A DNA stretch of 64,000 bases from Coriobacteriaceae bacterium (GCA_025992705.1 DAJPGJ010000001.1:399264-463263), one strand, 5' to 3'. Positions 911 to 21,470 are shown, counted from the first letter of the stretch. Notes: generated from the letters alone by a model not told the origin. Numbers and translations are program-made.

Positions 911-1213
911 ATGTGCTATCCATGCACGAACTGCGGGCGCTGCGGAAAGTTTGATCCCAGCAGCCCGCTGTACACACCCCCGCCAAGTATTCCCTGTCTG
1001 AAATGCGGCGGCACTATCGATGCGGCGACCGGCATTTGCGACAGCTGCGGTGATCAGGCCTTCGTGCCGACAGGCGGCATGATGGCGAGTGCCAACAGCC
1101 TGCGTCCCGACGCCGCTGGCAACAAGGGGACAGACCCTTCGTTGTCGAACGACGCCGTTGGCAACAAGGGGACAGACCCTTTCGAGGAGGGATCACCTCA
1201 TGAAACTATTTAA
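911..1213 (+). CDS. Small Cys-rich zinc-ribbon protein whose last ~30 codons are type A repeat sequence
   Basis: Sequence MCYPCTNCGRCGKF...CLKCGG...CDSCGD shows four CxxC pairs. RBS AGGGAG is upstream. The tail GNKGTDP...GNKGTDP is a translation of repeats 1118-1179, so the true stop and extent are uncertain. Paralogous to 12769-12987. Confidence 0.5.
   Translation: MCYPCTNCGRCGKFDPSSPLYTPPPSIPCLKCGGTIDAATGICDSCGDQAFVPTGGMMASANSLRPDAAGNKGTDPSLSNDAVGNKGTDPFEEGSPHETI
1118..1179 (+). repeat. Type A repeat, 2 identical direct copies 42 nt apart
   Basis: GGCAACAAGGGGACAGACCC at 1118-1137 and 1160-1179, just upstream of the RBS of the gene starting at 1200. Confidence 0.9.
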
Positions 1214-3533
1214 AGGTCAGGGCACGGCCGATCTTGGCAAGCCGTGGCGCTTCGAAGAAGACGGCCTCACCGTCACCCGCGGTTGCGCGTGGTCTCCTCC
1301 GGGATGTCACCCCGTCGGCTGCGGAATCAAGACCTACGTGAACTCAAACGGCGAGCTCGTGCGCATCGAAGGCGATGAGAACCATCCGGTTACGGGCGGT
1401 CGTCTCTGCGTCCGCTGCCTGACGATGCGCGATTACGTCTACAACCCAGACCGCGTCCTGTATCCCATGAAGCGCGCCCGCGAGGACCGCGGCAAGAACA
1501 AGTGGGAGCGCATCACCTGGGACGAGGCCTTCGACACGATTGCCGAGAAGGTCGCTTACTACAAGGAAAACTACGGGGCTGAGTCCATCCTCATGCAAGG
1601 CGGCACTGGCCGCGAGGGTGGCCCCATGCTTCCCGCGTATGCTCAAGCTGCACTCGGCACGCCGAACGCCTCGCAGCCCTTGAGCGGATACTCGTGTTAC
1701 ATTCCGCGCGTCGCGGGCACGACCTACGTCACTGGCGTGGCATATCCCGAGATGGACTACGCCGGTGGCCTGCCCGGCCGCTACGACGACCCGGCCTTCA
1801 CGCTGCCGGAGCTCATCGTGTTCTGGGGCAAGGATCCGCTGCCCACTAATGGCGACGGCCTCTTCGGCCACGCCGCCATCGACATGATGCGCCGCGGCTC
1901 CAAGCTCATGAGCATCGATCCGCGCGTCAACTGGGTCTCGACGAGAGCGGATTGGCACCTGCGCCTGCGCCCCGGCACCGACGCCGCCCTCGGCATGGCG
2001 ATGCTCAACGTCATCATCTCCGAGGACCTCTACGACCACGACTTCGTCGAGAAGTGGTGCTACGGCTTCGAGCAGCTCGCCGAGCGCGTCAAGGAGATGC
2101 CGGTCGAGAAGGCGGCGGAAATAACCGGCGTCGATGCTGGCCTCATCGCCGAGGCCGCCCGCGTCTACGCCGCGGCCAAGCCCGCGCAGATCGCCTGGGG
2201 CCTTGCCATCGACATGAAGTCCAACGGCATGCAGGCGGGCCATTGCATACTCGCCCTCGAGGCCATCACCGGAAATATCGACGTGCCCGGCGGCCAGCTC
2301 GTCGGCGACGTCAATGACGGCCTCGAGCTCGGCTTCGGCTGGAACGAGCTCGGCCCCGAGCTCCAGGGCAAGATTCTGGGCCTCAAACGCTATCCGGCGA
2401 TGGTGAGCTTCGTCCTCAACGCGCACTGCGACATGGTGCTCGACACGCTCGAGACGGGCGAGCCCTACCAGTTCAAGATGGCGGGCTTCGAGGATTGCAA
2501 CGGCCTGGCTGGCACGGATTGCGCCCAGCCCCAGCGCTGGCACGATGCGTACCAGAATCTCGAATGGTGCTTCGGCATCGACGTGTGGCTCACGCCGACG
2601 ATCCAGGCGACCTGCGAGCTGTTCCTCCCGCTATCCTCGACCGTCGAGCACGATAGCGTGGTCTACAGCCATTACGGCGCATCTCCCATCACGATGGGCG
2701 CCATCAACAAGTCCATCACGGTGGGCGAGGGCAAGGGCGATGCCGAGATCATGTACGAGATAGGTCGTCGCTGCATGCCCGTCAACTTCGGGCGCTTCAA
2801 GAACTTCTACGAGTTCCTCGAGTATTACCGCCTCAATGGCAAGACGACTTTCGAGGAGCTGCGCGAGGAGGTCGTGCACCAGAAGACCGAGACGCTCTCC
2901 TATCGCAAATACGAGACGGGCAAGCTGCGCCCCGACGGCATGCCCGGCTTCAACACGCCGACCGGGCGCGTCGAGCTCTATTCGACGATGTTCAGGCAGT
3001 TTGGGGTCGATCCGCTGCCCTTCTACGAGGAGCCGCAGCTTTCGCCGGTCTCCACGCCGGAGAAGATGGAGGAGTATCCCTTCGTGCTCACGACGGGCGC
3101 GCGCACGTATTGCTACTTCCATTCCGAGGGCAAGCAGATTCCGTACCTGCGTGAGATCAACCCCGATCCGCTCATCGAGATCAATCCCGAGGATGCGCTC
3201 AAGCTTGGAATCGCGGACGGCCAGTGGGTACGCGTGAGCAACCCCTTTGGCTCGTGCGTGCTCAAGGCCAAGGTCACTCAGACGGTGTATCCGGGTCTCG
3301 TCATGGCGCAGCACGGCTTCTGGTTCCCCGAGGAGGATGGCGAGGAGCCGCATCTCTACGACGTTTGGCGCTCCAACATCAATCTGCTCATGCCGCACTT
3401 TTACGTGGGGGAGCTGGGATTCGGTGCGCCGTATAAGTGCCTGATCTGCAAGGTCGAGCCTATCGAGGAAAGCTACGACACCGACATGCAGGCTATCTGG
3501 AATCGCTATAGCCAGCTTGTCGTGCCGGAATAG
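1200..3533 (+). CDS. Molybdopterin (bis-MGD) oxidoreductase catalytic subunit, DMSO-reductase superfamily, no signal peptide (paralog 1 of 4)
   Basis: 777 aa from ATG 1200 with RBS GAGGAGG. The track ORF starting at 1089 is an extension through repeats. N-terminal FeS Cys cluster CAWSPPGCHPVGCG...CVRC, with length and motifs typical of the family. No RRxF twin-arginine motif. Clear paralog of 3710-6001. Confidence 0.85.
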   Translation: MKLFKGQGTADLGKPWRFEEDGLTVTRGCAWSPPGCHPVGCGIKTYVNSNGELVRIEGDENHPVTGGRLCVRCLTMRDYVYNPDRVLYPMKRAREDRGKNKWERITWDEAFDTIAEKVAYYKENYGAESILMQGGTGREGGPMLPAYAQAALGTPNASQPLSGYSCYIPRVAGTTYVTGVAYPEMDYAGGLPGRYDDPAFTLPELIVFWGKDPLPTNGDGLFGHAAIDMMRRGSKLMSIDPRVNWVSTRADWHLRLRPGTDAALGMAMLNVIISEDLYDHDFVEKWCYGFEQLAERVKEMPVEKAAEITGVDAGLIAEAARVYAAAKPAQIAWGLAIDMKSNGMQAGHCILALEAITGNIDVPGGQLVGDVNDGLELGFGWNELGPELQGKILGLKRYPAMVSFVLNAHCDMVLDTLETGEPYQFKMAGFEDCNGLAGTDCAQPQRWHDAYQNLEWCFGIDVWLTPTIQATCELFLPLSSTVEHDSVVYSHYGASPITMGAINKSITVGEGKGDAEIMYEIGRRCMPVNFGRFKNFYEFLEYYRLNGKTTFEELREEVVHQKTETLSYRKYETGKLRPDGMPGFNTPTGRVELYSTMFRQFGVDPLPFYEEPQLSPVSTPEKMEEYPFVLTTGARTYCYFHSEGKQIPYLREINPDPLIEINPEDALKLGIADGQWVRVSNPFGSCVLKAKVTQTVYPGLVMAQHGFWFPEEDGEEPHLYDVWRSNINLLMPHFYVGELGFGAPYKCLICKVEPIEESYDTDMQAIWNRYSQLVVPE

Positions 3534-3568
3534 GGAGGGGGAATTACGAGGAAAGCATCTCACCTGGT

Positions 3569-3658
3569 GGCAATAAGGGGACAGACCCCCAAGTGCCGGG
3601 CATGGCAACAGGGGGACAGACCCTCTGCCATCGCAGGTGGGAAGAAGGGGACAGACCC
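3569..3658 (+). repeat. Type A repeat, 3 direct copies (spacing 35 nt)
   Basis: Copies at 3569-3588, 3604-3623 and 3639-3658 lie between the two molybdoenzyme genes. Confidence 0.9.
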
Positions 3659-3709
3659 CTACATGTCGACCCCTACATGTCAAAGAAACAGAGAGGAAGG
3701 GAAGGAAAC

Positions 3710-6001
3710 GTGACCACGACAGCAAAAATCGATAGCGGTATCGAAGACTTCAAAAACGACCTGGGCAAGCCCTGGCGTTACGAGGAGGACGGCTATACCG
3801 TCACGCGCGCCTGCGCCTGGTCGGCGCCGGGCTGCCATCCGGTTGGATGCGGCGTTAAGCTCTACGTGAACAAGGACGGCATCCTCGAAAAGGTCGAGGG
3901 CGACGAGAACCAGCCCATCACACAGGGGCGCCTCTGCATGCGCTGCCTGACCCTCACCGACTTCACCTATCATCCGGACCGCGTCATCTACCCGATGAAA
4001 CGCGCCAAGGAGGATCGCGGCAAGGACAAGTGGGAGCGCATCACCTGGGACGAGGCCTACGACATCATCGAGGAGAACATCCAGGGTCTCAAGGAGAAGT
4101 ACGGCCCCGAGTCCATCGTCGTCTTCGGTGGCACCGGTCGCGAGGGCGGCCCAATGTGCGGCCCTTACGGCGCGGCCATGATCGGTACGCCCAATGCCTG
4201 CTACACGCAGTCCGGTTACGCCTGCTACATCCCGCGCGTTGCCGCTGGCACCTATGTTGCTGGCGTGACCTACCCCGAGATGGACTACGCCGGCGGCTTG
4301 CCCGGACGCTATGACGATCCGATGTACAAGATTCCCGAGGTCACGATCACTTGGGGCAAGGAGCCGCTTCCCTCCAACGGCGACGGTTTCTTCGGCCACG
4401 CCGTCATCGACGTCATGAAGCGCGGCAGCAAGCTCATCTCGATCGATCCGCGCTCCAATTGGCTCTCCACGCGTGCGGTCTATCACCTGCAGCTGCGCCC
4501 TGGTACCGACACGGCTCTTGGCATGGCGATGCTCAACATCATCATCTCCGAGGACCTCTACGATCACGACTTCGTCGACAAATACTGCTACGGCTTCGAG
4601 CAGCTCGCCGAGCGCGTGAAGACCATGACTCCCGAGAAGGCGGCCGAGATCTGCGACCTCGACGTTGACGACATCTACGGTGCAACCCGCATGTACGCCT
4701 GCGCCGACAATGCCGCAATCCTGTGGGGACTTGCCACCGACCAGAAGGCCAACGGCACTCAGTCAGGTCACACGATCATCGCACTCGAGGCCATCACCGG
4801 CAATCTCGACATTCCCGGTGGCCAGCTGCTCGGTGATGTGAGCGACTCGCTCGGCGACCTCGGCTTCGGTTGGAAGGAGCTCGGTCCGGAGCTGCAGAAC
4901 AAGATCATCGGCCTGTACGAGTATCCCGCATATGTCGGCATGGTTCTCAACTCGCACGCCGACCTCACGCTCGAGGCCATGGAGACGGGCGAGCCCTACG
5001 AGATCCACGGCGGCTTCATCGCGTCGACCAACCTGCTTGCCGGCACCTGCGCCGCCCAGCCCAAGCGCTGGCATGACGCCATGGTCAAGCTCGACTTCGT
5101 CTTCGCGGCCGATTGCTGGATCACCCCGACCGTCCAGTGCTGTGCCGACGTCATCCTGCCGCTCGCGACCTACGCCGAGCGCCAGTCCATGGTCGGCACG
5201 CACTACGGCGCATCGCCCAACATGCTCGGTGCCGTCGTCGACGCCGTCAAGGTTGGCGAGACCAAGGGTGACCTTGAGATCCAGTACGAGCTTGGCTGCC
5301 GCCTCAACCCCGGCACCTACGAGCGATTCAAGGATTTCGAAGATTTCCGTGCCGAGTTCCGCCTCGGTAACCTCGGCATGAGCTACGAGGAACTGCGCGA
5401 GAAGGTCGTCGTCCAGCGCAACGTGAGCTACAAGAAGTACGAGACGGGCAAGCTGCGTCCCGACGGCAAGCCCGGCTTCAACACGCCGACCGGTCGCGTC
5501 GAGCTCTACTCGACCATGTACAAGCAGTTCAACGAGGATCCGCTGCCATACTACGAGGAGCCGCAGCGCTCTCCGGTGTCGACGCCCGAGCTCATGGAGG
5601 AGTATCCCTTCGTGCTCACGACCGGCGCCCGCACCTACGCGTACTTCCATTCCGAGGGAAAGCAGATTCCGCTGCTGCGCGAGATCAATCCCGATCCGCT
5701 GCTCGAGATCAATCCCAAGGATGCGGAGAAGCTCGGCATCATCGATGGCGAGTGGGTCAACGTCGAGAACGAGTTCGGCAAATGTGAGCTCAAGGCCAAG
5801 GTCACGCCCATCGTGAAGGAAGGCGTCGTGCATGCTCAGCATGGTTGGTGGTTCCCCGAAGAGGACAGAGAGGAGCCGCATCTGTTCGGCGTGTGGCGCT
5901 GCAATATCAACGAGCTCGTACCGCATAAGTTCGTGGGCAAGCTCGGTTTTGGCGCGCCGTTCAAGTGCCTGCTCTGCAAAGTCGAGAAGCTGAACAAATA
6001 G
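3710..6001 (+). CDS. Molybdopterin (bis-MGD) oxidoreductase catalytic subunit, no signal peptide (paralog 2 of 4)
   Basis: GTG 3710 is preceded by GAGAGGAAGGGAAGGA; the alternative start is ATG 3677. The track ORF from 3593 runs through repeats. Motif CAWSAPGCHPVGCG...CMRC is present, and the protein is collinear with paralog 1 over its full length. Confidence 0.85.
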   Translation: MTTTAKIDSGIEDFKNDLGKPWRYEEDGYTVTRACAWSAPGCHPVGCGVKLYVNKDGILEKVEGDENQPITQGRLCMRCLTLTDFTYHPDRVIYPMKRAKEDRGKDKWERITWDEAYDIIEENIQGLKEKYGPESIVVFGGTGREGGPMCGPYGAAMIGTPNACYTQSGYACYIPRVAAGTYVAGVTYPEMDYAGGLPGRYDDPMYKIPEVTITWGKEPLPSNGDGFFGHAVIDVMKRGSKLISIDPRSNWLSTRAVYHLQLRPGTDTALGMAMLNIIISEDLYDHDFVDKYCYGFEQLAERVKTMTPEKAAEICDLDVDDIYGATRMYACADNAAILWGLATDQKANGTQSGHTIIALEAITGNLDIPGGQLLGDVSDSLGDLGFGWKELGPELQNKIIGLYEYPAYVGMVLNSHADLTLEAMETGEPYEIHGGFIASTNLLAGTCAAQPKRWHDAMVKLDFVFAADCWITPTVQCCADVILPLATYAERQSMVGTHYGASPNMLGAVVDAVKVGETKGDLEIQYELGCRLNPGTYERFKDFEDFRAEFRLGNLGMSYEELREKVVVQRNVSYKKYETGKLRPDGKPGFNTPTGRVELYSTMYKQFNEDPLPYYEEPQRSPVSTPELMEEYPFVLTTGARTYAYFHSEGKQIPLLREINPDPLLEINPKDAEKLGIIDGEWVNVENEFGKCELKAKVTPIVKEGVVHAQHGWWFPEEDREEPHLFGVWRCNINELVPHKFVGKLGFGAPFKCLLCKVEKLNK

Positions 6002-6012
6002 GAGGGGAAACC

Positions 6013-6360
6013 ATGAGAAACGGACTGCTGATTGACTACGAGTTCTGCACGGGCTGCCAGTCCTGCGAGGTCGCGTGCCAGAAGGAGCATGGGTTCGAGG
6101 CTGGCACCTGGGGTATTCGCGTCCTTGACGAGGGCCCCTGGGAGGTCGATGCGAAGACCATGAACTGGAACAAGATTCCCACGCCCACGACGCTGTGCGA
6201 CCTGTGTGCCGAGCGCGTGCAGAAGGGCAAGCTCCCGAGTTGCGTGCATCACTGCCTTGCGGCTGTCATGAAGTTCGGCCCAATCGACGAGTTGGTGAAG
6301 GAGATGGACAAGAAACCCAATCAGGTCATGTTCGTCCCTGGACCGTATATCTGCAAATAG
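6013..6360 (+). CDS. Small 4Fe-4S ferredoxin-type electron-transfer subunit (8 Cys, 115 aa)
   Basis: ATG 6013 with RBS GGAGGGG at 6001-6007. Motifs CTGCQSCEVAC and CDLC...CVHHC are present. Homologous to the 112-aa proteins at 18360 and 21132. Confidence 0.85.
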   Translation: MRNGLLIDYEFCTGCQSCEVACQKEHGFEAGTWGIRVLDEGPWEVDAKTMNWNKIPTPTTLCDLCAERVQKGKLPSCVHHCLAAVMKFGPIDELVKEMDKKPNQVMFVPGPYICK

Positions 6361-6370
6361 CATCGTGCGT

Positions 6371-6395
6371 GGGGCCGGGTCTTGTACCCGGCCCC
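6371..6395 (+). terminator. GC-rich hairpin GGGGCCGGGT-cttgt-ACCCGGCCCC after the ferredoxin gene
   Basis: Perfect 10-bp stem 11 nt after stop 6360. No U-tract. Confidence 0.5.
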
Positions 6396-6412
6396 ATTGC
6401 ATCGCCGCAGGT

Positions 6413-6590: not shown

Positions 6591-6630
6591 CTATCAGCGC
6601 GAGGGATTTTATAGGAGAGCAACCGAAGGG

Positions 6631-8586
6631 ATGGATATGGCGTCTTTTAACGATTACGAGTACGTGTTTACGCCGCTCAGGGTAGGTAGGCAGGTGCTCA
6701 AGAACCGCATTATCTTTTCGCCCATGGTTTCTGATTACACGACCGCAAATGGCGAGCCGACGCAAGGTTACATTGACTTTGTCGAGGAGCAGGCCAAGAC
6801 GGGTGCGGCGCTCATTACGTTGGGGGCGACGCCGGTCAACTGGGACACTGCCCCCGATTATCCCGCCGAGCTGAACGTTACCGAGGATACGCGCATCAAT
6901 GGTCTGGTACTGCTGTCCGAGGTCGCGCATCGCCACGGGGCCAAAATCTCCGTCGAGCTCGTTCACGCCGGTCGCGGCGTGCACCCCGAACTCATCCAGA
7001 GCGAGTACGGACTTGCGCCCACGCCGCTGCCCATTCCGGGGCAGTACCCGTATCTCAAGGAGATGGAGTTCCGCGACATGGAGAACATCATCGCGGACTA
7101 TGTCGATTGCGCGGTGCGCCTCAAGAAGGCCCAGTTCGACGGCGTAAACATTCACGCCGCACATGGCAACCTGATTGCGGCGTTTCTTTCGCCGCTCACC
7201 AATCACCGAAACGACAACTTCGGCGGCAGTTTCGAGAACCGTTGCCGTTTCCCGTTGATGCTGCTCAAGGCCGTACGCGAAGCCGTCGGTGACGACTTCA
7301 TCCTTGACATGCGCATCAGCGGCGACGAGATGGTCGATGGCGGCATGGAGGTCGAAGAAGTCATCGAATTCCTCAAGCTCGCGCAGGAATACCTCGACAT
7401 GGTCAACATCTCGGCCGGCCTCATCGTCGATTGGCGTGCGCAGCTCTTCACGATGCCGCCCTACTACCAGCCGCATTGCCTCAATAGGGAGCTGTCGCGC
7501 AAGGTCAAGGAATGCAAGGAAATCACCATTCCCGTCTCCGTCGTCGGCTGCATCACCAATATCGACGAGGCCGAGGACATCATTGCGAGTGGGGCTGCCG
7601 ATGCGTGCTACATCGCGCGTGCCCTGCTGGCCGACACCGAGATTCTCAAGAAGTCGTATCGCGGCGAGCCCGAGACGGTGCGCCCCTGCCTGCGTTGCCA
7701 TTCGTGTGCGGCGGGCGGCGGCAACCACATGTCGTGTGCCATTAACCCGCAGCTTGGGCGCGGTTATCGTTACTGGGAGATTGTGCCGGCGGCCAAGAGC
7801 AAGAAGGTCGTCATCATCGGCGGCGGTCCGGCTGGCATGATGGCGGCGCAAACCGCGATCAGACGCGGTCACGAGGTCGTGCTGTTCGAGAAGTCCGCAT
7901 CGCTGGGCGGTGCGCTCAACGACATCAACAAGCTACCGTTCAAGAGCGATTTGCTGAAATATACGGAGTGGGACGTCAAGCAGACGATGGAATGTGGTGC
8001 TGACGTGCGTCTCAACACCGAGGCGACCCCCGAGCTCATCATGGCCGAGAAGCCCGATGCGCTCATCGTCGCGCTGGGCTCCGTGCCGGTCAACCCGCCC
8101 GTTCCTGGTCTCGACCGCGACAACGTGTATGGCGTGCGCGATGTCGATTCCGGACGCAAGAAGGTGAGCGGCAAAGTCGTCGTCTGCGGTGGTGGCGCGA
8201 GCGGCTGCGAGTCCGCGCTGGCGCTTGCCATGGAGGGCTGCGAGGTCACGCTCGTCGATCGTGTTCCGCTCGACAGGTTTGCCGCTGGCATGATTCACAT
8301 CACGCGCGGCATGTTGATGGCGCTGCTTGAGGAGTACAAGGTCCGCATTCTCGATGAGCGCAACGTCGAGGCCATCGACGATGATGGCGTGCACGTGCAG
8401 GACAGGAATTGGCGTCGCGAGGTCATTCCCGCTGATTACGTGGTCAACGCCATGGGTATACGCCCCGTCGCGCCCGACCAGTTCCGCGAGCTCATCCCCG
8501 AGACGTACGTTGTGGGTGACTGTGCGGATATTGGCACCATCAAAAAGGCGAACCACAGCGGCTTTGACGCAGCGCTCGAGGTGTAA
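6631..8586 (+). CDS. OYE-like FMN / FAD-NAD(P) two-domain oxidoreductase (2,4-dienoyl-CoA reductase / enoate reductase family)
   Basis: 651 aa. OYE motif HAAHGNLIAAFLSPLTNHRNDNFGGSFENRCRF, FeS motif CLRCHSCAAGGGNHMSCAINP, and Rossmann motif VVIIGGGPAGMMAA. Confidence 0.85.
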   Translation: MDMASFNDYEYVFTPLRVGRQVLKNRIIFSPMVSDYTTANGEPTQGYIDFVEEQAKTGAALITLGATPVNWDTAPDYPAELNVTEDTRINGLVLLSEVAHRHGAKISVELVHAGRGVHPELIQSEYGLAPTPLPIPGQYPYLKEMEFRDMENIIADYVDCAVRLKKAQFDGVNIHAAHGNLIAAFLSPLTNHRNDNFGGSFENRCRFPLMLLKAVREAVGDDFILDMRISGDEMVDGGMEVEEVIEFLKLAQEYLDMVNISAGLIVDWRAQLFTMPPYYQPHCLNRELSRKVKECKEITIPVSVVGCITNIDEAEDIIASGAADACYIARALLADTEILKKSYRGEPETVRPCLRCHSCAAGGGNHMSCAINPQLGRGYRYWEIVPAAKSKKVVIIGGGPAGMMAAQTAIRRGHEVVLFEKSASLGGALNDINKLPFKSDLLKYTEWDVKQTMECGADVRLNTEATPELIMAEKPDALIVALGSVPVNPPVPGLDRDNVYGVRDVDSGRKKVSGKVVVCGGGASGCESALALAMEGCEVTLVDRVPLDRFAAGMIHITRGMLMALLEEYKVRILDERNVEAIDDDGVHVQDRNWRREVIPADYVVNAMGIRPVAPDQFRELIPETYVVGDCADIGTIKKANHSGFDAALEV

Positions 8587-8768: not shown

Positions 8769-9587
8769 ATGGACAAGATCATCATTGAACCTATCACCAG
8801 CATGAAGAACGCGTTTTCCGTCGCTGGCCAGAATGTCGTTATTACTGGCGGCAATCGCGGCCTGGGCCGCGGTATCGCGCAGGCGTTTGCCGAGTGCGGC
8901 GCCAACGTCGCGATTCTGTGCCGGAATGAGGCGTCTGGTAACGAGGCCGCCGAGCAGCTGCGCTTGCTCGGATCGCGCGCCATCGCCGTAAAGTGCGATG
9001 TGGGGGATTTCGATTCCGTGCTGAGGGCCAAAGAGGTCGTCGCTAGCGAGTTCGACCACATCGATACGCTCGTCAACAACGCGGGCATTGATGGCAAGCA
9101 CGGCGTCTTCGACGACGCGCGTCTCGAGGAGTTCAAGCGCGTCATGAACGTCAATCTCGATGGCGTCGCCGCCATGATCCAGGTCTTCGGACAGTGGATG
9201 ATGGACGAGGGCCGTGGCGGCGAGATCATCAACATCTCGTCGATTGGCGGCCAGGCCATCGGCGACCCGCGCTCTCATCCCATGCCTTCGTACAATGCCT
9301 CGAAGGCCGCCCTCGATCACCTCACGCGTCACCTGGCGATCGTCATGGGCGACTACGGTATCCGCGTCAACTCGATTGCGCCCGGTCCCACGCATTCCGA
9401 TCTCGATGCAGGCCTTCCGCCGTCGATTACGGAGTTCATCGACGTGACGATGCCGATGCATCGCTTTGGCGAACCGCTCGAGATTGGTGCGTTGGCGGTC
9501 TTCCTGTCATCGCCGGCTGCGGCGCAGATCACGGGCGTTGTCGCCAATCATGATGGCGGTACCATGTGCGTCGGCCTGACGTTCTAA
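8769..9587 (+). CDS. Short-chain dehydrogenase/reductase (SDR)
   Basis: 272 aa with RBS GGAGAGGA. Cofactor motif ITGGNRGLGRGIA and catalytic YNASK. Confidence 0.85.
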   Translation: MDKIIIEPITSMKNAFSVAGQNVVITGGNRGLGRGIAQAFAECGANVAILCRNEASGNEAAEQLRLLGSRAIAVKCDVGDFDSVLRAKEVVASEFDHIDTLVNNAGIDGKHGVFDDARLEEFKRVMNVNLDGVAAMIQVFGQWMMDEGRGGEIINISSIGGQAIGDPRSHPMPSYNASKAALDHLTRHLAIVMGDYGIRVNSIAPGPTHSDLDAGLPPSITEFIDVTMPMHRFGEPLEIGALAVFLSSPAAAQITGVVANHDGGTMCVGLTF

Positions 9588-9784: not shown

Positions 9785-11740
9785 ATGCCGAGTTTCAACA
9801 ATTTCCCTCACATCTTCACGCCGATTAAGATTCGCAATTTCGAGCTGAAGAATCGCCTGGTTTTCTCGCCGGTCGTCTCAGGTCATGCGGGTGTTGTCGA
9901 TGGTCAGGTTACCGAGGCGCTCGTGCAGTTTCTCGGCGCCCAGGCTCGCAGTGGCGTCGGCATGGTCACAATCGGCGCATCGCCCGTCGACCAAGGCCGT
10001 GCACGCGATTTCTTCGGAAGCCTTTCCGTTTGCAAGGACGAAGACATTCCCGGCCTGCATCGCCTCGTCGAGGAAGCACATCGCTATGGCGCAGCGATTT
10101 CGTGCGAGATCCTGCATGCGGGGCGCATCGCGCAACCCAACGCGCTCGCCGGACGCAAGGCATGGGTGCCGTGGCTCACGCCCGACATGGACCCCGAGCT
10201 GTTCGAGGAAGTTACCGAGGAGCAGATGGACGAGGTCATCGACCTCTTCTGCAAGGCGGCCGTGCGTCTGCGCGACGCGGGTTTCGACATGGTGCTCATC
10301 CACGGCGCGCATGGCAACTTCGTGAGTGCGTTCTTCTCGCCGCTCACCAATCAGCGTACCGACGAGTACGGCGGATCCTTCGAGAACCGCATGCGCTTCC
10401 CGCTCAAGCTCGTGAAGGCTGTGCGTGAGGCCGTGGGCGAGAACATGGCCATCGACTTCCGCATCAGTCAGAACGAATACGTCGAAGGCGGCACCACGCT
10501 CGAGGATGTCATCACCTTCCTCAAGGCGGCCGAGCCCTATATCGATGATGCGAATCTCTCGGGCGGCTGGATTTTCGACCCGGTCTACGTCAAGTACATG
10601 ATGCCGGGTTATCCGCAGGAGCTGTGCCTCAACATCCCGCGCACGGCCATCGTCCACGAGCAGCTCGATATTCCGGTCACCTGCGTCGGTAACATCCCCA
10701 ACATCGAGACCGCCGAGCAGATTCTTGCCGAGGGCAAGGCCGACATCGTCGCCTTCGCGCGCAATATCCTTGCCGATATGGACTTGGTGAACAAGGCGTA
10801 TCGTGGCGAGGAGGACACTATCCGCCCGTGCCTGCGCTGCATCGAGTGCGCCTCGCGGCCTGCCGTGGGCGGTGGCGTGCGCTGCTCGGTCAATCCGCAG
10901 CTTGGCCGCGAGCTTTACTATCGCGAGATACGGCCGGCACTTACCAAAAAGAAAGTGGTCGTCATCGGTGGTGGTCCGGCTGGCATGATGGCGACGCAAA
11001 CCGCCGTCAAACGCGGCCATGACGTCGTACTATTCGAGCGCGATGAAGAGTTGGGAGGCCGTCTCAAGGAAGCGTCGGTCCTCTTCTGCAAGGAGCCGTA
11101 CCACAAGCGCTATCTCGCCTGGGACAAGCGTGCAACGCTCGAGAGCGGCGCGGACATCCGGCTGGGTGTGGAAGCGACGCCGGAGCTCGTCATGGCGGAG
11201 AATCCTGACGAGGTCATCGTCGCCATTGGCGGCGAGCACATCTGCCCGCCCATCCCCGGCGCCAACGGAGACAATGTCATCACGGTGACCGAGGCCGACC
11301 TGGGTCTGGCGCCCATCGGCAAGCGCGTCGTGATCGTGGGTGGCGGCTTTTCCGCGCTCGAATGCGGTATCCAGCTCGCCTACGAAGGCCATGAGGTCAC
11401 GGCCATCGATGCGCTGCCCGAGGACAAGCTCTGGCGCGAGGTCATGAACGAGCTACGCAGCGGTCTCATCGAGCTGCGCGATCGTTACGGCGTGCAGCTC
11501 GTTGACGAGGCCATGGTGAAGGAGATTCGCGAGGGGTCCGTCGTGTATACACGTGGTGGCGAGGATTTCGAGATTCCCGCCGACACGGTTGTCATGGCAT
11601 GCGGCTTACGTCCGAACAAAGAGATCGTGCAACAGTTCGTGGAAATGATGCCGCAGGTCACGGTCGTGGGCGATGCGCGCAAGACGGGCAACATCTTCTC
11701 GGCGAACATGAGCGCCTTCGATGCGGCGGTAGAACTCTGA
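9785..11740 (+). CDS. OYE-like FMN / FAD-NAD(P) two-domain oxidoreductase, paralog of 6631-8586
   Basis: 651 aa. Motifs HGAHGNFVSAFFSPLTNQRTDEYGGSFENRMRF, CLRCIECASRPAVGGGVRCSVNP and VVVIGGGPAGMMAT. Confidence 0.85.
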   Translation: MPSFNNFPHIFTPIKIRNFELKNRLVFSPVVSGHAGVVDGQVTEALVQFLGAQARSGVGMVTIGASPVDQGRARDFFGSLSVCKDEDIPGLHRLVEEAHRYGAAISCEILHAGRIAQPNALAGRKAWVPWLTPDMDPELFEEVTEEQMDEVIDLFCKAAVRLRDAGFDMVLIHGAHGNFVSAFFSPLTNQRTDEYGGSFENRMRFPLKLVKAVREAVGENMAIDFRISQNEYVEGGTTLEDVITFLKAAEPYIDDANLSGGWIFDPVYVKYMMPGYPQELCLNIPRTAIVHEQLDIPVTCVGNIPNIETAEQILAEGKADIVAFARNILADMDLVNKAYRGEEDTIRPCLRCIECASRPAVGGGVRCSVNPQLGRELYYREIRPALTKKKVVVIGGGPAGMMATQTAVKRGHDVVLFERDEELGGRLKEASVLFCKEPYHKRYLAWDKRATLESGADIRLGVEATPELVMAENPDEVIVAIGGEHICPPIPGANGDNVITVTEADLGLAPIGKRVVIVGGGFSALECGIQLAYEGHEVTAIDALPEDKLWREVMNELRSGLIELRDRYGVQLVDEAMVKEIREGSVVYTRGGEDFEIPADTVVMACGLRPNKEIVQQFVEMMPQVTVVGDARKTGNIFSANMSAFDAAVEL

Positions 11741-13004: not shown

Positions 13005-13931
13005 TCACGAACTCTCGGCAAGGGTATCCTTGCCAATAATCTCGATAGCTTCGGGAACGAGAGGGTTGCGGCTATTCTTCGAGAAGAAGACGGCAACCGG
13101 GAACGTTGCATCAGCATCGGATATGGGGATTTGCTGACAGAACGGAAGGATGCCAATGCCGACTCGCTTGATGAAGTTCTCTCCGAGGATGAGCACCTCA
13201 TCGGTGAGGCCTGCTGCCACGGTGATAAGGTCGGTGAGGCGCATCGAGTAGCAGCGTCTGATTTTTGGGGCAAAACCGTGGGCCCTACAGCGTTCTTCGA
13301 TAAAACGCCATGCTTCGGAAATATGGGATCCTTCAATCTTGATGAAAGTCTCATTTTTCAAATCATCAAGAGATATCGTTTCCTGACCCGCAAGCCTGTG
13401 ATCTTTGCTAACGACGGCAACCCACGAGAGCGTCCCTATGGGGACCGAATCGAGCATGTCATCCATGCTGCTGATTTCATAGGCATAATCAAATACGATA
13501 TCGACATCATCTTCTCGAAGGAGCTCAGACGGGAGCCTGTGCTTTGCCGGTCGCACTTCGAGGAAATTGCGTCCATGTCTTTCGCTCATGGCCACGAGCA
13601 TGTTGCTTAGTGTTTGCGAGACTAACTCCTCTTCAACGAAACCGCCCACTCTTAGTTGGGGTGGTGGAGTCGCTCGCAAGCTTTTGACCATGGCATAGAA
13701 GCCTTTTTGGCTTTCTATAATCTTGTACGCATAGGGCAACAGCTCAGTGCCGGCTCTCGTGAGGCGAAGGGCACTGCCCGATCTGTCGAAAAGCTCGATA
13801 TGAAGCTCGCGCTCGAACGAGCTGATATGTTTGCTCAAAGTGGGTTGTGACATGTTGAGCATGCGAGCCGTTTCCGTGAAATTCAGCCGCTTTGCCAACT
13901 CGGCGAACTCCTGAAGAATATCCGTGTCCAT
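13005..13931 (-). CDS. LysR-family transcriptional regulator
   Basis: 308 aa with an N-terminal wHTH (FAELAKRLNFTETARMLNMSQPTLSKHISSFERELHIELFDRSG). Divergent from the MFS gene at 14267. Confidence 0.9.
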   Translation of the reverse strand: MDTDILQEFAELAKRLNFTETARMLNMSQPTLSKHISSFERELHIELFDRSGSALRLTRAGTELLPYAYKIIESQKGFYAMVKSLRATPPPQLRVGGFVEEELVSQTLSNMLVAMSERHGRNFLEVRPAKHRLPSELLREDDVDIVFDYAYEISSMDDMLDSVPIGTLSWVAVVSKDHRLAGQETISLDDLKNETFIKIEGSHISEAWRFIEERCRAHGFAPKIRRCYSMRLTDLITVAAGLTDEVLILGENFIKRVGIGILPFCQQIPISDADATFPVAVFFSKNSRNPLVPEAIEIIGKDTLAESS

Positions 13932-14266: not shown

Positions 14267-15529
14267 ATGACGGCTGCAACTGCTAACAAGGTCAATCAGC
14301 ATATTGGCAAGCTGATGGTGCCTATCATGGCGATTTATGCGCTCGGCGCTTCGCAGGGTGGTATTAACGCTGGCATTGCTACGATGGGTGCTGCATTTCC
14401 GGAGGCCGGCGCAAACATCGCCTGCGTGGTCTCAATCGTTGCCCTTGGAATGATTCCGGCGGGCGCCATCACAGGAATTGTTTCGGGTAGGTACATCAAG
14501 TACCGCACGTCCATCCTCGTCGCGATCGTTCTGTACTTGATTTCGGGTCTTCTTCCCGTTTTCATGGGAGATTCGATGGGCTTCACCGGCCTGCTTGTAT
14601 CGCGCTTCATTTTTGGCGTTGCGGTTGGCTGGTGCTATCCGCTTGCACAAGCTCTCGTCTTCAAGAGCGTTGACGATGAGCACCAGCGCGCAAAATGGCT
14701 CGGTATCGGCTGGGCTTTCGTGAATATCGGCTCGGCTCTGATGGAGCTTTTCGGAGGTTATCTGGCACTTGTCGGTTGGCAGATGTGCTTCTGGGTTTAT
14801 GCCATCGGCATCATCCCCTTCATCTTCGTTCTTCTTTTCCTGAAGGAGCCTGAGACTGACGCCCAGCAGGCTGCGGAACGCGCCGCCGCTCATGGCACGA
14901 CCGCAGGCAAGGCCCATATCCCCGCACTCGCGTTTGTCTACATGATCATGCTCACGCTCACGACCGGCTTCGCGATGCCGACGATTCTGTATTGCTCCTT
15001 CATCGTTCCCGATTCCGCTGTTGCGGGCATCACGCTTTCCGTCATGACGCTCGTTGGCGCGGTGTCCGGCTTCACCCTTGGTCCCGTGTATAAAGCCATC
15101 GGCAAGTGGACGCTTCCGGTTTCCGTCCTTGTGCTCGGCATCCTCTACTGCGTTGCCGCCGCCTTCTCGGCTGATTTCCAGATGATTCCTTATCTCATCG
15201 GCTTCCTTGCCGGTCACTGGGGCTTTGCAATCGTCATTCCGGCCACAGCGGATATGATCACCAACCTCACTCCGATCGGTGCTGCAACGCGCGCGATGGG
15301 CTGGAACACGGCTTTCCATCAGATTGGCTGCTTCATCGGCACGCCGGTTGGCGTCTTTGTCCTGGGTCTCGTAGGGAGCCAGAATCCCGTCGATTGCGTC
15401 ATGCCGTGCTCCATTGCAATTGTCGTGCTTGGCGTCATCTACTGCATCATTGCTGCCTTCACCAAGATGGAGAAATACGGCGAGAACTATGAGATTGAGG
15501 CTGAGGCGAAAGCAAATACCGAGGTCTAG
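14267..15529 (+). CDS. MFS transporter
   Basis: 420 aa, about 12 hydrophobic segments, RBS GGGAGAGG. Confidence 0.8.
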   Translation: MTAATANKVNQHIGKLMVPIMAIYALGASQGGINAGIATMGAAFPEAGANIACVVSIVALGMIPAGAITGIVSGRYIKYRTSILVAIVLYLISGLLPVFMGDSMGFTGLLVSRFIFGVAVGWCYPLAQALVFKSVDDEHQRAKWLGIGWAFVNIGSALMELFGGYLALVGWQMCFWVYAIGIIPFIFVLLFLKEPETDAQQAAERAAAHGTTAGKAHIPALAFVYMIMLTLTTGFAMPTILYCSFIVPDSAVAGITLSVMTLVGAVSGFTLGPVYKAIGKWTLPVSVLVLGILYCVAAAFSADFQMIPYLIGFLAGHWGFAIVIPATADMITNLTPIGAATRAMGWNTAFHQIGCFIGTPVGVFVLGLVGSQNPVDCVMPCSIAIVVLGVIYCIIAAFTKMEKYGENYEIEAEAKANTEV

Positions 15530-15658: not shown

Positions 15659-15679
15659 GGGGTCTGTCCCCATCTTCCC
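15659..15679 (-). repeat. Type A repeat, single inverted copy
   Basis: The + strand reads GGGGTCTGTCCCCATCTTCCC, which is the reverse complement of GGGAAGATGGGGACAGACCCC. Confidence 0.85.
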
Positions 15680-18370: not shown

Positions 18371-18698
18371 CGCATTGATGATCGACTACGAGTTCTGCAC
18401 CGGCTGCCACGCCTGCGAGGTCGCCTGCAAGAAGCACCTCGAGGTCGGCGAGGGCCAGTACGGCATCCACGTCCTGCAGGACGGCCCCAGGGAGCTTCCC
18501 GACGGGCGCTGGGAGTACAACTTCCTGCCCATGCCCACGTCGCTTTGCGACATGTGCGCGGGAAGGATCGCCGAGGGCAAGGACGCCGCCTGCGTGCACC
18601 ACTGCCCGGCGCACTGCATGTACTACGGCACGGCCGAGGAGATGGCGGCGCTGGCCGCCGGCAAGGCCAAGAGCGCGGTGTTCGTCCCCGTCGCCTAG
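18360..18698 (+). CDS. Small 4Fe-4S ferredoxin-type subunit (112 aa)
   Basis: Motifs CTGCHACEVAC and CDMC...CVHHC. 11-nt overlap with the upstream catalytic gene. The protein is identical to 21132-21470. Confidence 0.85.
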   Translation: MSANALMIDYEFCTGCHACEVACKKHLEVGEGQYGIHVLQDGPRELPDGRWEYNFLPMPTSLCDMCAGRIAEGKDAACVHHCPAHCMYYGTAEEMAALAAGKAKSAVFVPVA

Positions 18699-18772: not shown

Positions 18773-21142
18773 ATGGCAAGCAAATACTACGAAGAGCATA
18801 AGGATGACGTCACCTGGCAAGATGGCGAATACACCGTGACCCGCACCACGACCTGGTCGGGCCCCGGCTGCCACGACGGCTGCGGCGTCCTCTACTACAC
18901 CAAAAACGGAAAGCTCGAAAAGGTCGAGGGCGATCCGTATAACCCCTTCAACGGTGGCACCCTTTGCATGCGTTGTCTCGAGATGCCGGAGTTCGTCAAT
19001 CATCCCCAACGTGTCACCTCGCCCCTCAAGCGCGTGGGCGAGCGTGGCGAGAACAAGTGGGAAGAGATCTCCTATGACGAGGCATACGACATCATCGAGG
19101 AGAAGGTCCGCGAGATCTGGCGTGACTACGCCCCCGAATCCATTTCCTGCATGATGGGCACTGGCCGTAATGCTTGCTGGCAGGTTCCTTATCTCTGCTA
19201 TTCGGCATTCGGTTCGCCCAACTTCTGCCTTGGCTTCCTGTCTGGCGAATCCTGCTTCCAGCCTCGTTCCGCTGCGATGGCGTCCATGAACGGCGACTTC
19301 TTGATTGCTGACATGTCGCAGCAGTTCGAGAGCCGCTATGACGAGGAGAACACCGAGTGGCGCGTCCCCGAGGTCATCATGATTTGGGGCAACAATCCTG
19401 TCAGGTCGAACTCGGACAACTTCTACGGCGGCTGGGTCGTCGACTGCATGCAGCGCGGCTCCAAACTCATCACCATCGATCCTTCGCTCACCTGGCTCGC
19501 GTCACGTTCCGAGCATTGGCTGCGCCTACGCCCCGGTACCGATGGCGCGCTGGCTCTCGGCATGCTCCACGTCATCATCGAGGAGGACCTCTACGATCAC
19601 GACTTCGTCGAGAAGTGGACCTATGGATTCGACGAGCTGCGCGAGCGCTGCAAGGATTGGACGCCCAAGAAGGTTTCCGAGATTTGCTGGATTCCGGAAG
19701 AGGAGATCGTTGCGGCTGCCCGTATGTACGCGCAGGCAAAGCCCGCCACCATCCAGTGGGGTCTCCCGATTGATCAAGCGGTCTGGGGTATTCCGTCGGC
19801 CATGGCCATCAACGCCCTGTGGACCATCACGGGCAACGTCGACATCCCTGGCGGCAACATCATCATCCGCAACGCATTTGACCAGAACGTCTCCTACAAC
19901 TATGGCTTCAACAACCTTGCTCCCGAGGTCCAGGCAAAGCGCATCGGCGCCGAGTATCCCCTCATGGCCAAGGCGGGCTTCAGCTCCACGGCCCATTCCG
20001 ACTCCATTCTGAAGGCCATCGAAACCGGCGACCCGTACCCCATCAAGATGCTCTGGCTGCAGTCGACCAACCCCATCGCCAACATGGGCTCGGATGCTCC
20101 GCGTATCTACCGTGCGGTAAAGTCCCTCGACTTCGTAGTCGTGGTCGACATGTACATGACGCCTACCGCGGTCGCATTCGCCGACCTGTTCCTGCCGTGT
20201 GCCATGAGCTGCGAGCGTGATAGCCAGCGCGTGTGGTGGGTCCCGCTGCGCGGCATGAAGAAGGTCACGCAGTTTGGCGAGGTCAAGTCCGATGAGGACA
20301 TCATCATCGATTTGGGCAAGCGCTTGCACCCGGAGAACTTCCCGTTTGACAACGAGATCGAGTGGGCTGACAACATCCTCAAGAACGAGACGCCCGCCTA
20401 TGGTGGAGATTTCGACCAGCTCGTCAACCATGACGTGTGGAAGTATCCCGAGTTCCATTACCGCAAGTACGAGATTGGCGAGGGCCGCTACGACGGCCAG
20501 GTCGGTTTCAACACTCCGACAGGTCGTGTCGAGCTCTACAACACGACCATGATGCTGTGGGGCTACGATCCGCTGCCTGATTGGGAGGAGCCGACGAGCT
20601 CTCCGTACCGTACGCCGGAGCTCTTCGAGAAGTACCCGTTCGTGCTCACGACGGGCGCCCGCTCCTTCGAGTTCTTCCACTCCGAGAATCGTCAGCCCAA
20701 CACCACCTCGCGCGAGCTGCATCCCATGCCCAAGTTCGAGATGAGCAAGAATGCGGCCGAAAAGCTCGGTCTGGAAGATGGCGAGTGGTGCTGGCTCGAG
20801 AATCAGCATGGCCGCTGCCGCCAGATTCTGCGCATCAATCCGTCGCTCGACGACCGTGTGGTCCGCGCCGAGCACGGCTGGTGGTTCCCCGAGACCGAGG
20901 GCGCCGAGCCCAACCTGTTCGGCACCTTTGATTCCAACATCAACAACCTGATCCCGCAGTGCGATAACGGTGTCACCGGCTACGGAGCACCCTATAAGAA
21001 CCAGCTTTGCAAGGTCTACAAGTGCACCGAGGAGAACAGCAAGGTCATGCCTGGTTATCACGTGACGAGGGAAGATGGTTATTCCAAGGACATCGACGAG
21101 TCCAACGGTGACGTGAAAGTAGGTATGACGTATGAGCGCTAA
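18773..21142 (+). CDS. Molybdopterin (bis-MGD) oxidoreductase catalytic subunit, no signal peptide (paralog 4 of 4)
   Basis: 789 aa, collinear with 15995-18370 and identical at most positions by eye. Same FeS motif and the same overlap with its ferredoxin gene. Confidence 0.85.
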   Translation: MASKYYEEHKDDVTWQDGEYTVTRTTTWSGPGCHDGCGVLYYTKNGKLEKVEGDPYNPFNGGTLCMRCLEMPEFVNHPQRVTSPLKRVGERGENKWEEISYDEAYDIIEEKVREIWRDYAPESISCMMGTGRNACWQVPYLCYSAFGSPNFCLGFLSGESCFQPRSAAMASMNGDFLIADMSQQFESRYDEENTEWRVPEVIMIWGNNPVRSNSDNFYGGWVVDCMQRGSKLITIDPSLTWLASRSEHWLRLRPGTDGALALGMLHVIIEEDLYDHDFVEKWTYGFDELRERCKDWTPKKVSEICWIPEEEIVAAARMYAQAKPATIQWGLPIDQAVWGIPSAMAINALWTITGNVDIPGGNIIIRNAFDQNVSYNYGFNNLAPEVQAKRIGAEYPLMAKAGFSSTAHSDSILKAIETGDPYPIKMLWLQSTNPIANMGSDAPRIYRAVKSLDFVVVVDMYMTPTAVAFADLFLPCAMSCERDSQRVWWVPLRGMKKVTQFGEVKSDEDIIIDLGKRLHPENFPFDNEIEWADNILKNETPAYGGDFDQLVNHDVWKYPEFHYRKYEIGEGRYDGQVGFNTPTGRVELYNTTMMLWGYDPLPDWEEPTSSPYRTPELFEKYPFVLTTGARSFEFFHSENRQPNTTSRELHPMPKFEMSKNAAEKLGLEDGEWCWLENQHGRCRQILRINPSLDDRVVRAEHGWWFPETEGAEPNLFGTFDSNINNLIPQCDNGVTGYGAPYKNQLCKVYKCTEENSKVMPGYHVTREDGYSKDIDESNGDVKVGMTYER

Positions 21143-21470
21143 CGCATTGATGATCGACTACGAGTTCTGCACCGGCTGCCACGCCTGCGAGGTCGCCTGC
21201 AAGAAGCACCTCGAGGTCGGCGAGGGCCAGTACGGCATCCACGTCCTGCAGGACGGCCCCAGGGAGCTTCCCGACGGGCGCTGGGAGTACAACTTCCTGC
21301 CCATGCCCACGTCGCTTTGCGACATGTGCGCAGGGCGCATCGCCGAGGGCAAGGACGCCGCCTGCGTGCACCACTGCCCGGCGCACTGCATGTACTACGG
21401 CACGGCCGAGGAGATGGCGGCGCTGGCCGCCGGCAAGGCCAAGAGCGCGGTGTTCGTCCCCGTCGCCTAG
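21132..21470 (+). CDS. Small 4Fe-4S ferredoxin-type subunit (112 aa), duplicate of 18360-18698
   Basis: 335 of 339 nt are identical to the first copy by direct comparison. All 4 differences are synonymous. Confidence 0.85.
   Translation: MSANALMIDYEFCTGCHACEVACKKHLEVGEGQYGIHVLQDGPRELPDGRWEYNFLPMPTSLCDMCAGRIAEGKDAACVHHCPAHCMYYGTAEEMAALAAGKAKSAVFVPVA

Follow-up and report, generated by a model that had tools for sequence, protein, structure and literature searches.

The stretch of DNA analysed here (the window) comprises 64,000 nucleotides from a Coriobacteriaceae bacterium (GCA_025992705.1 DAJPGJ010000001.1:399264-463263), and it carries four intact genes for molybdopterin oxidoreductases that we call A1, A2, B1 and B2. 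It comes from an uncultured Coriobacteriia species of the human gut, represented by the metagenome-assembled genomes (MAGs) MGYG-HGUT-02074 and HGM04055. A first block of genes occupies the plus strand from 470 to 11740 and consists, in this order, of an FKBP gene, a Cys-rich open reading frame (ORF), A1, A2, a gene for a small iron-sulfur (FeS) protein, a first flavoenzyme reductase gene (ER1), a short-chain dehydrogenase/reductase (SDR) gene and a second reductase gene (ER2). It is followed by a spacer of lower GC content at 12-16 kb, which holds one small ORF that is conserved and, in divergent orientation, a LysR gene. Beyond the LysR gene come a major facilitator superfamily (MFS) gene, B1, an FeS gene, B2, another FeS gene, two MFS genes and an SGL gene, up to 25582. 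The four catalytic subunits (777, 774, 791 and 789 amino acids, aa) share 67% identity between A1 and A2, 72.5% between B1 and B2 and 43-45% between A and B proteins; they therefore form two paralog pairs, as had been proposed in an earlier reading made from the sequence alone (the sequence-only reading). The start of A2 may be placed at 3677 or at a GTG codon at 3710. In all four products the Molybdop_Fe4S4, Molybdopterin and Molydop_binding domains score above the Pfam gathering thresholds, and the bis-MGD (MGD, molybdopterin guanine dinucleotide) architecture of the DMSO reductase superfamily is thus present in 4/4.

The unusual N-terminal FeS motif that the sequence-only reading had pointed out is confirmed by alignment with reference sequences. 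The motif, W-[ST]-x-P-G-C-H-x(1,2)-G-C-G ... L-C-x-R-C (hereafter FS0), is the form conserved in this alignment and is present in the four enzymes. It lacks the initial Cys of the canonical CX2CX3C and has a new Cys two residues past the fourth ligand (C-x-R-C), whereas acetylene hydratase and the Eggerthella-type enzymes retain the canonical CX2CX3C...C. Moreover, the residue that follows the first Cys of the motif is an invariant His, at the position held by the catalytic Asp13 in acetylene hydratase. At the molybdenum ligand position, the Cys of GYSCYIPR, GYACYIPR, GDSCFCPR and GESCFQPR aligns with Cys141 (YMCIGN) of acetylene hydratase, at the level of HMMER and MAFFT alignments only, and the motif around this Cys takes the form S-G-x-[SA]-C-[YF]-x-P-R across the enzymes. 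The N-termini are hydrophilic, and the claim that no twin-arginine (Tat) leader is present extends to the upstream sequence: for each of the four genes, reading upstream in frame as far as the preceding stop reveals no motif of the RR-x-F-L type. As a separate observation, the characterised enzyme Gp Hcdh (C1877_07565 / C1878_03015) is devoid of all four N-terminal FeS cysteines (WSPPGSHPVGYG ... GRVNAMNL) and retains the Cys that binds the metal as well as the invariant His. Since this active enzyme has lost its four cysteines, the N-terminal cluster is dispensable in at least one active member of the family.

According to these features and to the comparisons that follow, the four enzymes are best explained as cytoplasmic two-subunit "Gordonibacter-type" catechol dehydroxylases, an explanation that we judge, by homology and together with the roles proposed below for the B and A pairs, to have a probability of about 80%. 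The top solved relative is acetylene hydratase (E 2e-85 for A1, 8e-80 for B1), and the other bis-MGD enzymes come far behind. Acetylene hydratase has been reported as the nearest solved relative of catechol dehydroxylases (PMC7028382). In a neighbour-joining tree (389 N-terminal columns, 100 bootstraps), all four proteins nest among Dodh, Gp Hcdh, Gs Vadh, Eldh1 and Eldh2, while acetylene hydratase and the Eggerthella-type enzymes fall outside. The Balskus laboratory described the Gordonibacter-type family in work that appeared between 2020 and 2025. Its members have no Tat leader, are smaller than the Eggerthella enzymes, have a small 4Fe-4S partner, are likely soluble and have MFS neighbours (PMC7028382, PMC12771579), and their regulators are of the LuxR or LysR type. 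Every sequence-level feature of this published definition is found in the window enzymes. Indeed, the catalytic subunits (774-791 aa) are inside the range of about 745-810 aa, FeS partners of 112-115 aa adjoin them, and the MFS genes at 14267, 21638 and 22973 together with the LysR gene at 13005-13931 fit the neighbourhood. The sequence-only reading had placed the four genes with cytoplasmic bis-MGD enzymes of the catechol dehydroxylase type paired with a small FeS subunit, which agrees with both the top match and the tree. Its proposal of aromatic or polyphenolic substrates imported by the MFS carriers gains support from the family placement and from the published hallmarks, and its list of neighbours was borne out by Pfam, with three small 4Fe-4S genes, two Fe-S flavoenzymes of the old yellow enzyme (OYE)/FAD kind, the SDR, the LysR regulator and the MFS transporters. 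The class is a recognised one and not new: the enzyme class, its architecture and the function of the B pair are already published, and our findings leave the picture of the family unchanged.

The features of the locus are listed in Table 1. The scan of the major ORFs covered the window as far as about 54.8 kb, and thus all but roughly its final 9 kb. Between 26 and 54 kb, most of the sequence has housekeeping functions, among them purine synthesis, SerRS, a Tad pilus and an ABC transporter. No further molybdenum, TorD or LuxR genes were found among the scanned ORFs, nor was any NrfD/DmsC-type anchor or cytochrome gene. The GC content is about 53% at 12000-16000, against about 60-62% in the flanks, and this interval is the junction of the A/ER block and the LysR-MFS-B block. 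The drop is consistent with the joining of two blocks from separate sources.

Table 1. Genes of the dehydroxylase locus, with positions in the window and the basis of each assignment
Feature	Position	Strand	Basis
FKBP-type peptidyl-prolyl isomerase (SlyD/FkpB-like)	470..898	+	Pfam FKBP_C, E 1e-14
Small Cys-rich protein, four CxxC motifs	911..1213	+	translation; no Pfam family
A1, catalytic subunit, 777 aa (DBY20_07510)	1200..3533	+	Pfam domains, identity, tree
A2, paralog of A1, 774 aa (DBY20_07505)	3677..6001	+	Pfam domains, identity, tree
Ferredoxin-like subunit, 115 aa, two predicted [4Fe-4S]	6013..6360	+	Pfam Fer4_11, Fer4_2, Fer4; partial DmsB-like match
ER1, Fe-S flavoenzyme C=C reductase	6631..8586	+	Pfam Oxidored_FMN, Pyr_redox_2
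SDR	8769..9587	+	Pfam adh_short_C2, E 2e-58
ER2, second Fe-S flavoenzyme C=C reductase	9785..11740	+	Pfam; 46% identical to ER1
Small conserved ORF upstream of LysR gene, 103 aa	12366..12677	+	no Pfam match
LysR-type regulator, divergent from B operon	13005..13931	-	Pfam HTH_1, LysR_substrate
MFS transporter, presumed substrate importer	14267..15529	+	Pfam MFS_1
B1, (+)-Eldh1 ortholog, 791 aa	15995..18370	+	identity, tree, synteny
2x[4Fe-4S] subunit for B1, 112 aa	18360..18698	+	Pfam and NCBIfam profile matches
B2, (+)-Eldh2 ortholog, 789 aa	18773..21142	+	identity, tree
2x[4Fe-4S] subunit for B2	21132..21470	+	product identical to that of 18360-18698
MFS transporter	21638..22900	+	Pfam MFS_1
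Second MFS transporter of that stretch	22973..24358	+	Pfam MFS_1
SMP-30/gluconolactonase/LRE-like (SGL) protein, lipoprotein-type N-terminus (…LVGCGG)	24566..25582	+	Pfam SGL, E 3e-33

The B pair has published counterparts. In Gordonibacter pamelaeae DSM 19378, (+)-Eldh1 and (+)-Eldh2 act on (+)-dihydroxyenterolactone (Dong et al., JACS 2025, PMC11887054); each enzyme takes one para-hydroxyl off the (S,S)-dihydroxyenterolactone, and jointly they yield (+)-enterolactone (PMC11887054). The supplementary table of Dong et al. holds the first 400 residues or so of G. pamelaeae C1877_01900 and C1877_01910. For full-length comparisons we used two proteins, P0123, of the Gordonibacter C1877_01900 / GPA_25810 type, and P0138, of the G. 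pamelaeae C1877_01910 / GPA_25800 type. The published reverse-transcription quantitative PCR (qPCR) primers of GPA_25810 ((+)-Eldh1) translate to PIRMVW and KSVDFV, both found in P0123, and those of GPA_25800 ((+)-Eldh2) translate to NKWESV and NNCWQI, both found in P0138. Moreover, P0123 and P0138 are 74.1% identical, which matches the published 74% for Eldh1 and Eldh2. The primer peptides and this mutual identity thus tie the two proteins to GPA_25810 and GPA_25800. B1 is 82.4% identical to Eldh1 (P0123) over 789 aa and B2 is 76.4% identical to Eldh2 (P0138) over 771 aa, against 70.5% for the cross pairs B1/Eldh2 and B2/Eldh1. Both B proteins thus pass the homologue threshold of the authors who described Eldh (>75% identity, >85% coverage). 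In the tree, B1 with Eldh1 and B2 with Eldh2 were each grouped in 100/100 bootstraps. Because B1 pairs with Eldh1 and B2 with Eldh2, the duplication is older than the split of the two hosts.

The gene order around the B pair is likewise shared. Small ORF, LysR on the minus strand, MFS, molybdenum enzyme, FeS, molybdenum enzyme, FeS, MFS and SGL follow each other in the window and in two Gordonibacter-type metagenome contigs that encode P0123 (L078 and L079), with identities between the window and these contigs of 63% for the small ORF, 44% for LysR, 63% for the upstream MFS, 52% for the downstream MFS and 53% for SGL. The small ORF at 12366-12677 (103 aa) corresponds, at this 63%, to a 79-aa gene at the same position of the Gordonibacter Eldh locus. 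The MFS gene at 22973-24358 is without a counterpart in the Gordonibacter locus and has only a distant match elsewhere. Since B1 and B2 are one-to-one orthologs of Eldh1 and Eldh2 in a syntenic locus, we assign them the roles of (+)-Eldh1 and (+)-Eldh2, which they probably fulfil with the exact substrate included, as far as homology can tell. The sequence-only reading held that the sequence indicates no substrate; this stands for A1 and A2 but not for B1 and B2, for which (+)-dihydroxyenterolactone can be inferred by orthology. We also observed that the last gene of the Eldh-like locus in both lineages encodes an SGL/arylesterase-like beta-propeller protein. Because a lactonase-like gene adjoins the enterolactone-forming dehydroxylases, its position suggests a role in the opening or closing of the lactone ring.

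The small FeS subunits are distributed differently in the two pairs. A single gene (6013-6360) serves A1 and A2, and B1 and B2 have one each. The product of 6013-6360 is 47% identical to the B-type FeS proteins, and those of 18360-18698 and 21132-21470 are 100% identical to each other. When the DNA of 18014-18698 is compared with that of 20790-21470, the identity, which is about 75% along the greater part of the catalytic genes, climbs to 85-90% over their final 350 bp or so and to 97-100% in the FeS genes. Gene conversion between the B1 and B2 units keeps the FeS copies identical. In the Gordonibacter-type contig L079, the FeS proteins that flank Eldh1 and Eldh2 are likewise identical. Since the copies are identical both in the window and in L079, the FeS subunits appear to evolve in concert in the two lineages.

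A1 and A2 belong to another part of the family. A1 is 82-83% identical, and A2 67-69% identical, to a protein of 776-779 aa (C1877_07290 / C1878_02695) that is conserved in Gordonibacter, Ellagibacter, Raoultibacter and Adlercreutzia. A1, A2 and the C1877_07290 / C1878_02695 / DBY20_07545 group form one clade with 100% bootstrap support. DBY20_07545 is the window species' own ortholog of the 776-779 aa protein and is located about 8 kb upstream of A1 (L002:1954-4290). Since the host keeps this separate ortholog, A1 and the more divergent A2 are additional, lineage-specific paralogs. Both are already catalogued as predicted family members: they match almost letter for letter DBY20_07510 and DBY20_07505, which Dong et al. 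2025 list in their supplementary table under 'Coriobacteriia bacterium'. Sequences like A1 and A2 fall in cluster 8 of the sequence similarity network (SSN) of Bae et al. 2024, a cluster without assigned function, and a literature search for the locus tags of the A-type genes found no paper. Their identity to any characterised Gordonibacter-type member is 45-54%; A1 reaches 53% with Gs Vadh and 50% with Gp Hcdh (N-terminal 360 aa or so), which act on phenolic acids. The iso-functional identity threshold is 72% for the SSN in the 2024 survey (Bae et al.) and at least 80% for Vadh. A1 and A2 are thus below the iso-functional range for Gp Hcdh and Gs Vadh (>=72% in the SSN, >=80% for Vadh), and the identity is too distant for the substrate to be transferred from these enzymes.

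Several identities were considered for the A pair and its relatives and then rejected. The 776-779 aa relative of A1 was a candidate for Gp Hcdh, its species spread resembling the one published for Unk-9, but nothing in those loci matches the proteomics peptide, the qPCR primers or the CRISPR spacer of Gp Hcdh, and Gp Hcdh is C1877_07565, a different sequence without the FS0 cysteines. Adjacent molybdenum enzyme genes in a locus of Gs 28C (L018), which has LuxR and MFS genes, were considered as Eadh1/Eadh2; this is not supported, since the scanned ORFs of L018 yielded no decarboxylase and the genes there have 0268x-0269x tags, which differ from the loci published for the two enzymes (C1878_RS16305 and RS11985). 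The third molybdenum enzyme gene of the same locus was considered as Gs Vadh; the Vadh primers did not match there, the gene is C1878_02655, and Vadh is C1878_02750, just outside the stretch of the locus that was analysed. Finally, A1 and A2, which are adjacent without an FeS gene between them, were considered as the Eldh pair, to which they are only about 47% identical.

The neighbours of the A pair may give an indication of its substrate. ER1 is built of an OYE-type FMN domain, a Cys motif and an FAD/NAD domain, and its best PDB matches are 2-naphthoyl-CoA reductase and 2,4-dienoyl-CoA reductase. ER1 and ER2 belong to the 2,4-dienoyl-CoA reductase / BaiCD / BilR / daidzein-reductase family, far under every equivalog cut-off; on ER1, the scores of the BaiCD and BilR-long models are roughly half of what their cut-offs require. 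For the SDR, none of the NCBIfam models reaches its cut-off. The order A2-FeS-SDR-ER2 is kept in a distant water-buffalo MAG (L022) at 84-86% identity, the ER2 ortholog being 84% identical, and such an order in two lineages hints at a functional link. One could imagine that A1, A2 and their shared ferredoxin form, together with ER1, ER2 and the SDR, an undescribed multi-step polyphenol pathway, a proposal that we regard as tentative and rather doubtful. In such a pathway, an unsaturated catechol scaffold (flavone, isoflavone or hydroxycinnamate) could be ring- or side-chain-reduced and then dehydroxylated by A1 and A2, at two positions or as two stereoisomers. If true, it would define the substrate of the widespread orphan dehydroxylases of SSN cluster 8.

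The cluster continues past the 5' edge of the window. Bases 1-89 are the 3' end of another FeS-subunit gene, and same-species contigs that overlap the 5' end at 95-97% DNA identity hold the upstream genes (L036:2043-2744; L021:2608-3309; L002:1-10000). These include a TorD/NarJ-like chaperone gene 3.1 kb upstream of base 1 (Pfam PF02613, NCBIfam TorD model) and two further dehydroxylase genes. The order in L002, a locus of a closely related MAG, is MFS, molybdenum enzyme (779 aa), FeS, TorD, molybdenum enzyme (788 aa), FeS, FKBP and Cys-rich ORF, and it continues with A1, A2, FeS, ER1, SDR and ER2. A LuxR regulator is located further upstream in other related contigs, as is an upstream MFS gene for the A part. 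As two more dehydroxylase genes are present upstream, the cluster comprises at least six genes of this type. Two statements of the sequence-only reading, that there are four such genes and that no TorD-like gene is nearby, therefore hold for the window only; its statement on the lack of a membrane anchor and cytochrome stands for the scanned ORFs. The TorD-like gene has no tblastn match in the corresponding Gordonibacter loci L005 and L018.

Two other accessory genes deserve mention. The FKBP (470-898) matches the NCBIfam FkpB and SlyD models under their cut-offs. It forms with the Cys-rich gene a pair (470-898, 911-~1110) that tblastn finds beside molybdenum enzyme genes in Gordonibacter, Raoultibacter, Adlercreutzia and several MAGs. 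The motifs of the Cys-rich protein are MCYPCTNCGRCGK...CLKCGG...CDSCG; only the first 55-67 aa or so of the ORF are conserved, and the remainder reads through repeat copies at 1124 and 1166. Conserved adjacency suggests three candidate maturation factors, namely the FKBP, the Cys-rich protein and the TorD-like chaperone. The repeat in question is a REP-like intergenic element with the core AAGGGGACAGACCC, present within 405-37890 in 37 copies at no more than one mismatch, against 0.04 expected. Most copies (33/37) are on the plus strand, and those examined sit in the gaps between plus-strand genes (for example at 1124, 1166, 3575, 3645, 6419, 6577, 8603-8740, 9595-9668 and 33230-33397). The copies often follow each other in tandem at a period of 35 bp. 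The element folds into hairpins that are nested (z -4.4), and it lengthens ORFs spuriously, adding the peptides 'GNKGTDP' and 'ATRGQTL'.

Several points weigh against the assignment of the four enzymes to Gordonibacter-type dehydroxylases with the roles given above. The tree is a neighbour-joining one restricted to N-terminal columns, and several reference enzymes are represented by partial sequences, in the tree as in the identities. B2, at 76.4%, is barely above the 75% line. Furthermore, family paralogs that are 74% identical differ in site-selectivity and enantioselectivity varies among enzymes (PMC11887054), so that identities of 76-82% do not guarantee the same substrate isomer. The LysR protein and its counterpart in Gordonibacter share only 44% identity, and an additional MFS gene is present in the window; the inducer or the transport specificity may therefore differ. 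The nearest characterised enzymes of the A pair are at 53-54% (Gs Vadh) and 49-50% (Gp Hcdh), on the N-terminal 360 aa or so of partial references, and the link of the ER and SDR genes to the A pair rests on adjacency in two lineages only. A rival reading is that B1 and B2 are catechol dehydroxylases for another lignan or polyphenol, or for the opposite enantiomer, the synteny reflecting common ancestry and not the same substrate. The modest identity of B2 and of LysR, the additional MFS gene at 22973-24358 and the shifts in site- and enantio-selectivity between fairly close homologs all go in this direction. However, the one-to-one orthology has full bootstrap support, the whole Eldh locus is conserved with its SGL lactonase-like gene, and the identities of B1 and B2 exceed both iso-functional thresholds (72% in the SSN, 75% by BLAST), which makes a different substrate unlikely. 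Somewhat less probable still is that A1 and A2 are phenolic-acid dehydroxylases iso-functional or overlapping with Gp Hcdh or Gs Vadh (hydrocaffeic acid, dihydroxyphenylvaleric acid), next to ER and SDR genes that are unrelated to them. Gs Vadh and Gp Hcdh are indeed their closest characterised relatives, Gs Vadh shares the WSPPGCHPVGCG motif form, and hydrocaffeic acid is abundant in the gut, but identities of 49-54% are far under 72-80%. Moreover, Gordonibacter retains the A-subclade ortholog C1877_07290 beside Gp Hcdh (C1877_07565), which implies distinct functions, and a distant MAG has retained the order A2-FeS-SDR-ER2.

With acetylene hydratase as the best solved match and pyrogallol hydroxytransferase as a weak one, the four enzymes might be non-redox hydratases or hydroxytransferases instead of dehydroxylases. 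We consider this very improbable: the FS0 motif is unlike that of acetylene hydratase, the Asp13 position is an invariant His, the match to pyrogallol hydroxytransferase is only E 4e-14, and enzymes that are much more closely related have been proven to be dehydroxylases. In addition, the presence of a dedicated ferredoxin partner with two clusters implies redox turnover. A respiratory function with inorganic or S/N-oxide acceptors, or a formate dehydrogenase function, would account for the generic similarity to Fdh-alpha, PhsA and DmsA models and has hardly any probability, the lowest of all. Among the NCBIfam equivalogs of respiratory reductases and formate dehydrogenases (Fdh-alpha, PhsA, DmsA, TorA, NapA and others, which cover formate dehydrogenase and the DMSO, TMAO, thiosulfate, nitrate, arsenate and tetrathionate reductases), the top scores lie at 231-263 bits where cut-offs of 666-778 apply, the highest being 263 against the 666 required, and the scores on these models are all given as no more than one third of the curated cut-offs. 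The close orthology to such enzymes that would speak for this function is thus not seen. Besides, the Tat leader is absent, the scanned ORFs contain no membrane anchor or cytochrome, and the metal ligand is a Cys inside a dehydroxylase-type motif.

Taking the Gordonibacter-type assignment as the best explanation, we propose the following scenario, drawn from homology and from the characterised relatives. The region would be part of a polyphenol-catabolic island of the uncultured gut Coriobacteriia species. By homology, each catalytic subunit is a cytoplasmic bis-MGD protein with an N-terminal [4Fe-4S] site and a Cys metal ligand, and its ferredoxin-like partner of 112-115 aa has two predicted [4Fe-4S] sites. 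Expression would be induced by a ligand-sensing regulator; for the B genes this would be LysR, and for the A part it is probably the LuxR encoded upstream. The catechol would be imported by the MFS transporters, and the reduced Mo(IV) would strip its para-hydroxyl, which would leave as water. The two electrons would be resupplied through the FeS chain from a cytoplasmic donor, and the product would be exported. For the characterised family, the electron source in vitro is methyl viologen with dithionite. B1 and B2 most likely take one para-hydroxyl each from (+)-dihydroxyenterolactone, so that both are lost and (+)-enterolactone results. A1 and A2, as recent paralogs of a widely conserved dehydroxylase, probably act on another catechol scaffold, which ER1, ER2 and the SDR may pre-process.

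It is the catechol dehydroxylases that determine which of the bioactive metabolites of polyphenols, such as enterolignans, urolithins and phenolic acids, are passed on to the host, and in the 2024 survey 121 of the 126 sequence clusters had no known function. An intact Eldh1/Eldh2-type locus, reported mainly from Gordonibacter, is also present in an uncultured gut Coriobacteriia lineage with a small genome. Its presence in a second lineage bears on the question of who makes (+)-enterolactone in people. For the orphan A subclade, the Fe-S flavoenzyme reductases, the SDR, the TorD-like chaperone and the FKBP/Cys-rich pair are leads to the substrate, and the same neighbours are leads for the choice of accessory genes in heterologous expression.

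Among known systems, the Eggerthella-type enzymes (Dadh, El Hcdh, Cadh) share the superfamily and the reaction class with the window enzymes. Those are Tat-exported proteins of 960-1190 aa, in three subunits with a membrane anchor and a four-cluster FeS subunit, and the window enzymes show none of these features. The acetylene hydratase of Pelobacter acetylenicus (PDB 2e7z) has the same fold family and a Cys at the metal-ligand position; however, it has the canonical CX2CX3C...C and the catalytic Asp13 and stands alone without an FeS subunit, whereas in the window enzymes the fourth Cys is relocated (C-x-R-C), a His takes the place of Asp13 and a ferredoxin serves as partner. With the Gordonibacter-type enzymes (Dodh, (-)-Eddh/Cldh, Gp Hcdh, Gs Vadh, Eadh1-3; PMC7028382, PMC11585353, PMC11887054, PMC12771579) they have in common a size of 745-810 aa, the lack of a Tat leader, the 4Fe-4S partner, MFS neighbours, LuxR/LysR regulators and the FS0 and Cys-ligand motifs. 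A1 and A2 differ from them in that they share one FeS gene and adjoin Fe-S flavoenzyme reductases and an SDR. The closest parallel is that of (+)-Eldh1 and (+)-Eldh2. The window host is not a Gordonibacter and has contigs of about 2-2.4 Mb, its LysR is at 44% and an additional MFS gene is present; the divergence within the paralog pair is similar (72.5% in the window, 74% in G. pamelaeae) and in both lineages the two FeS subunits are mutually identical.

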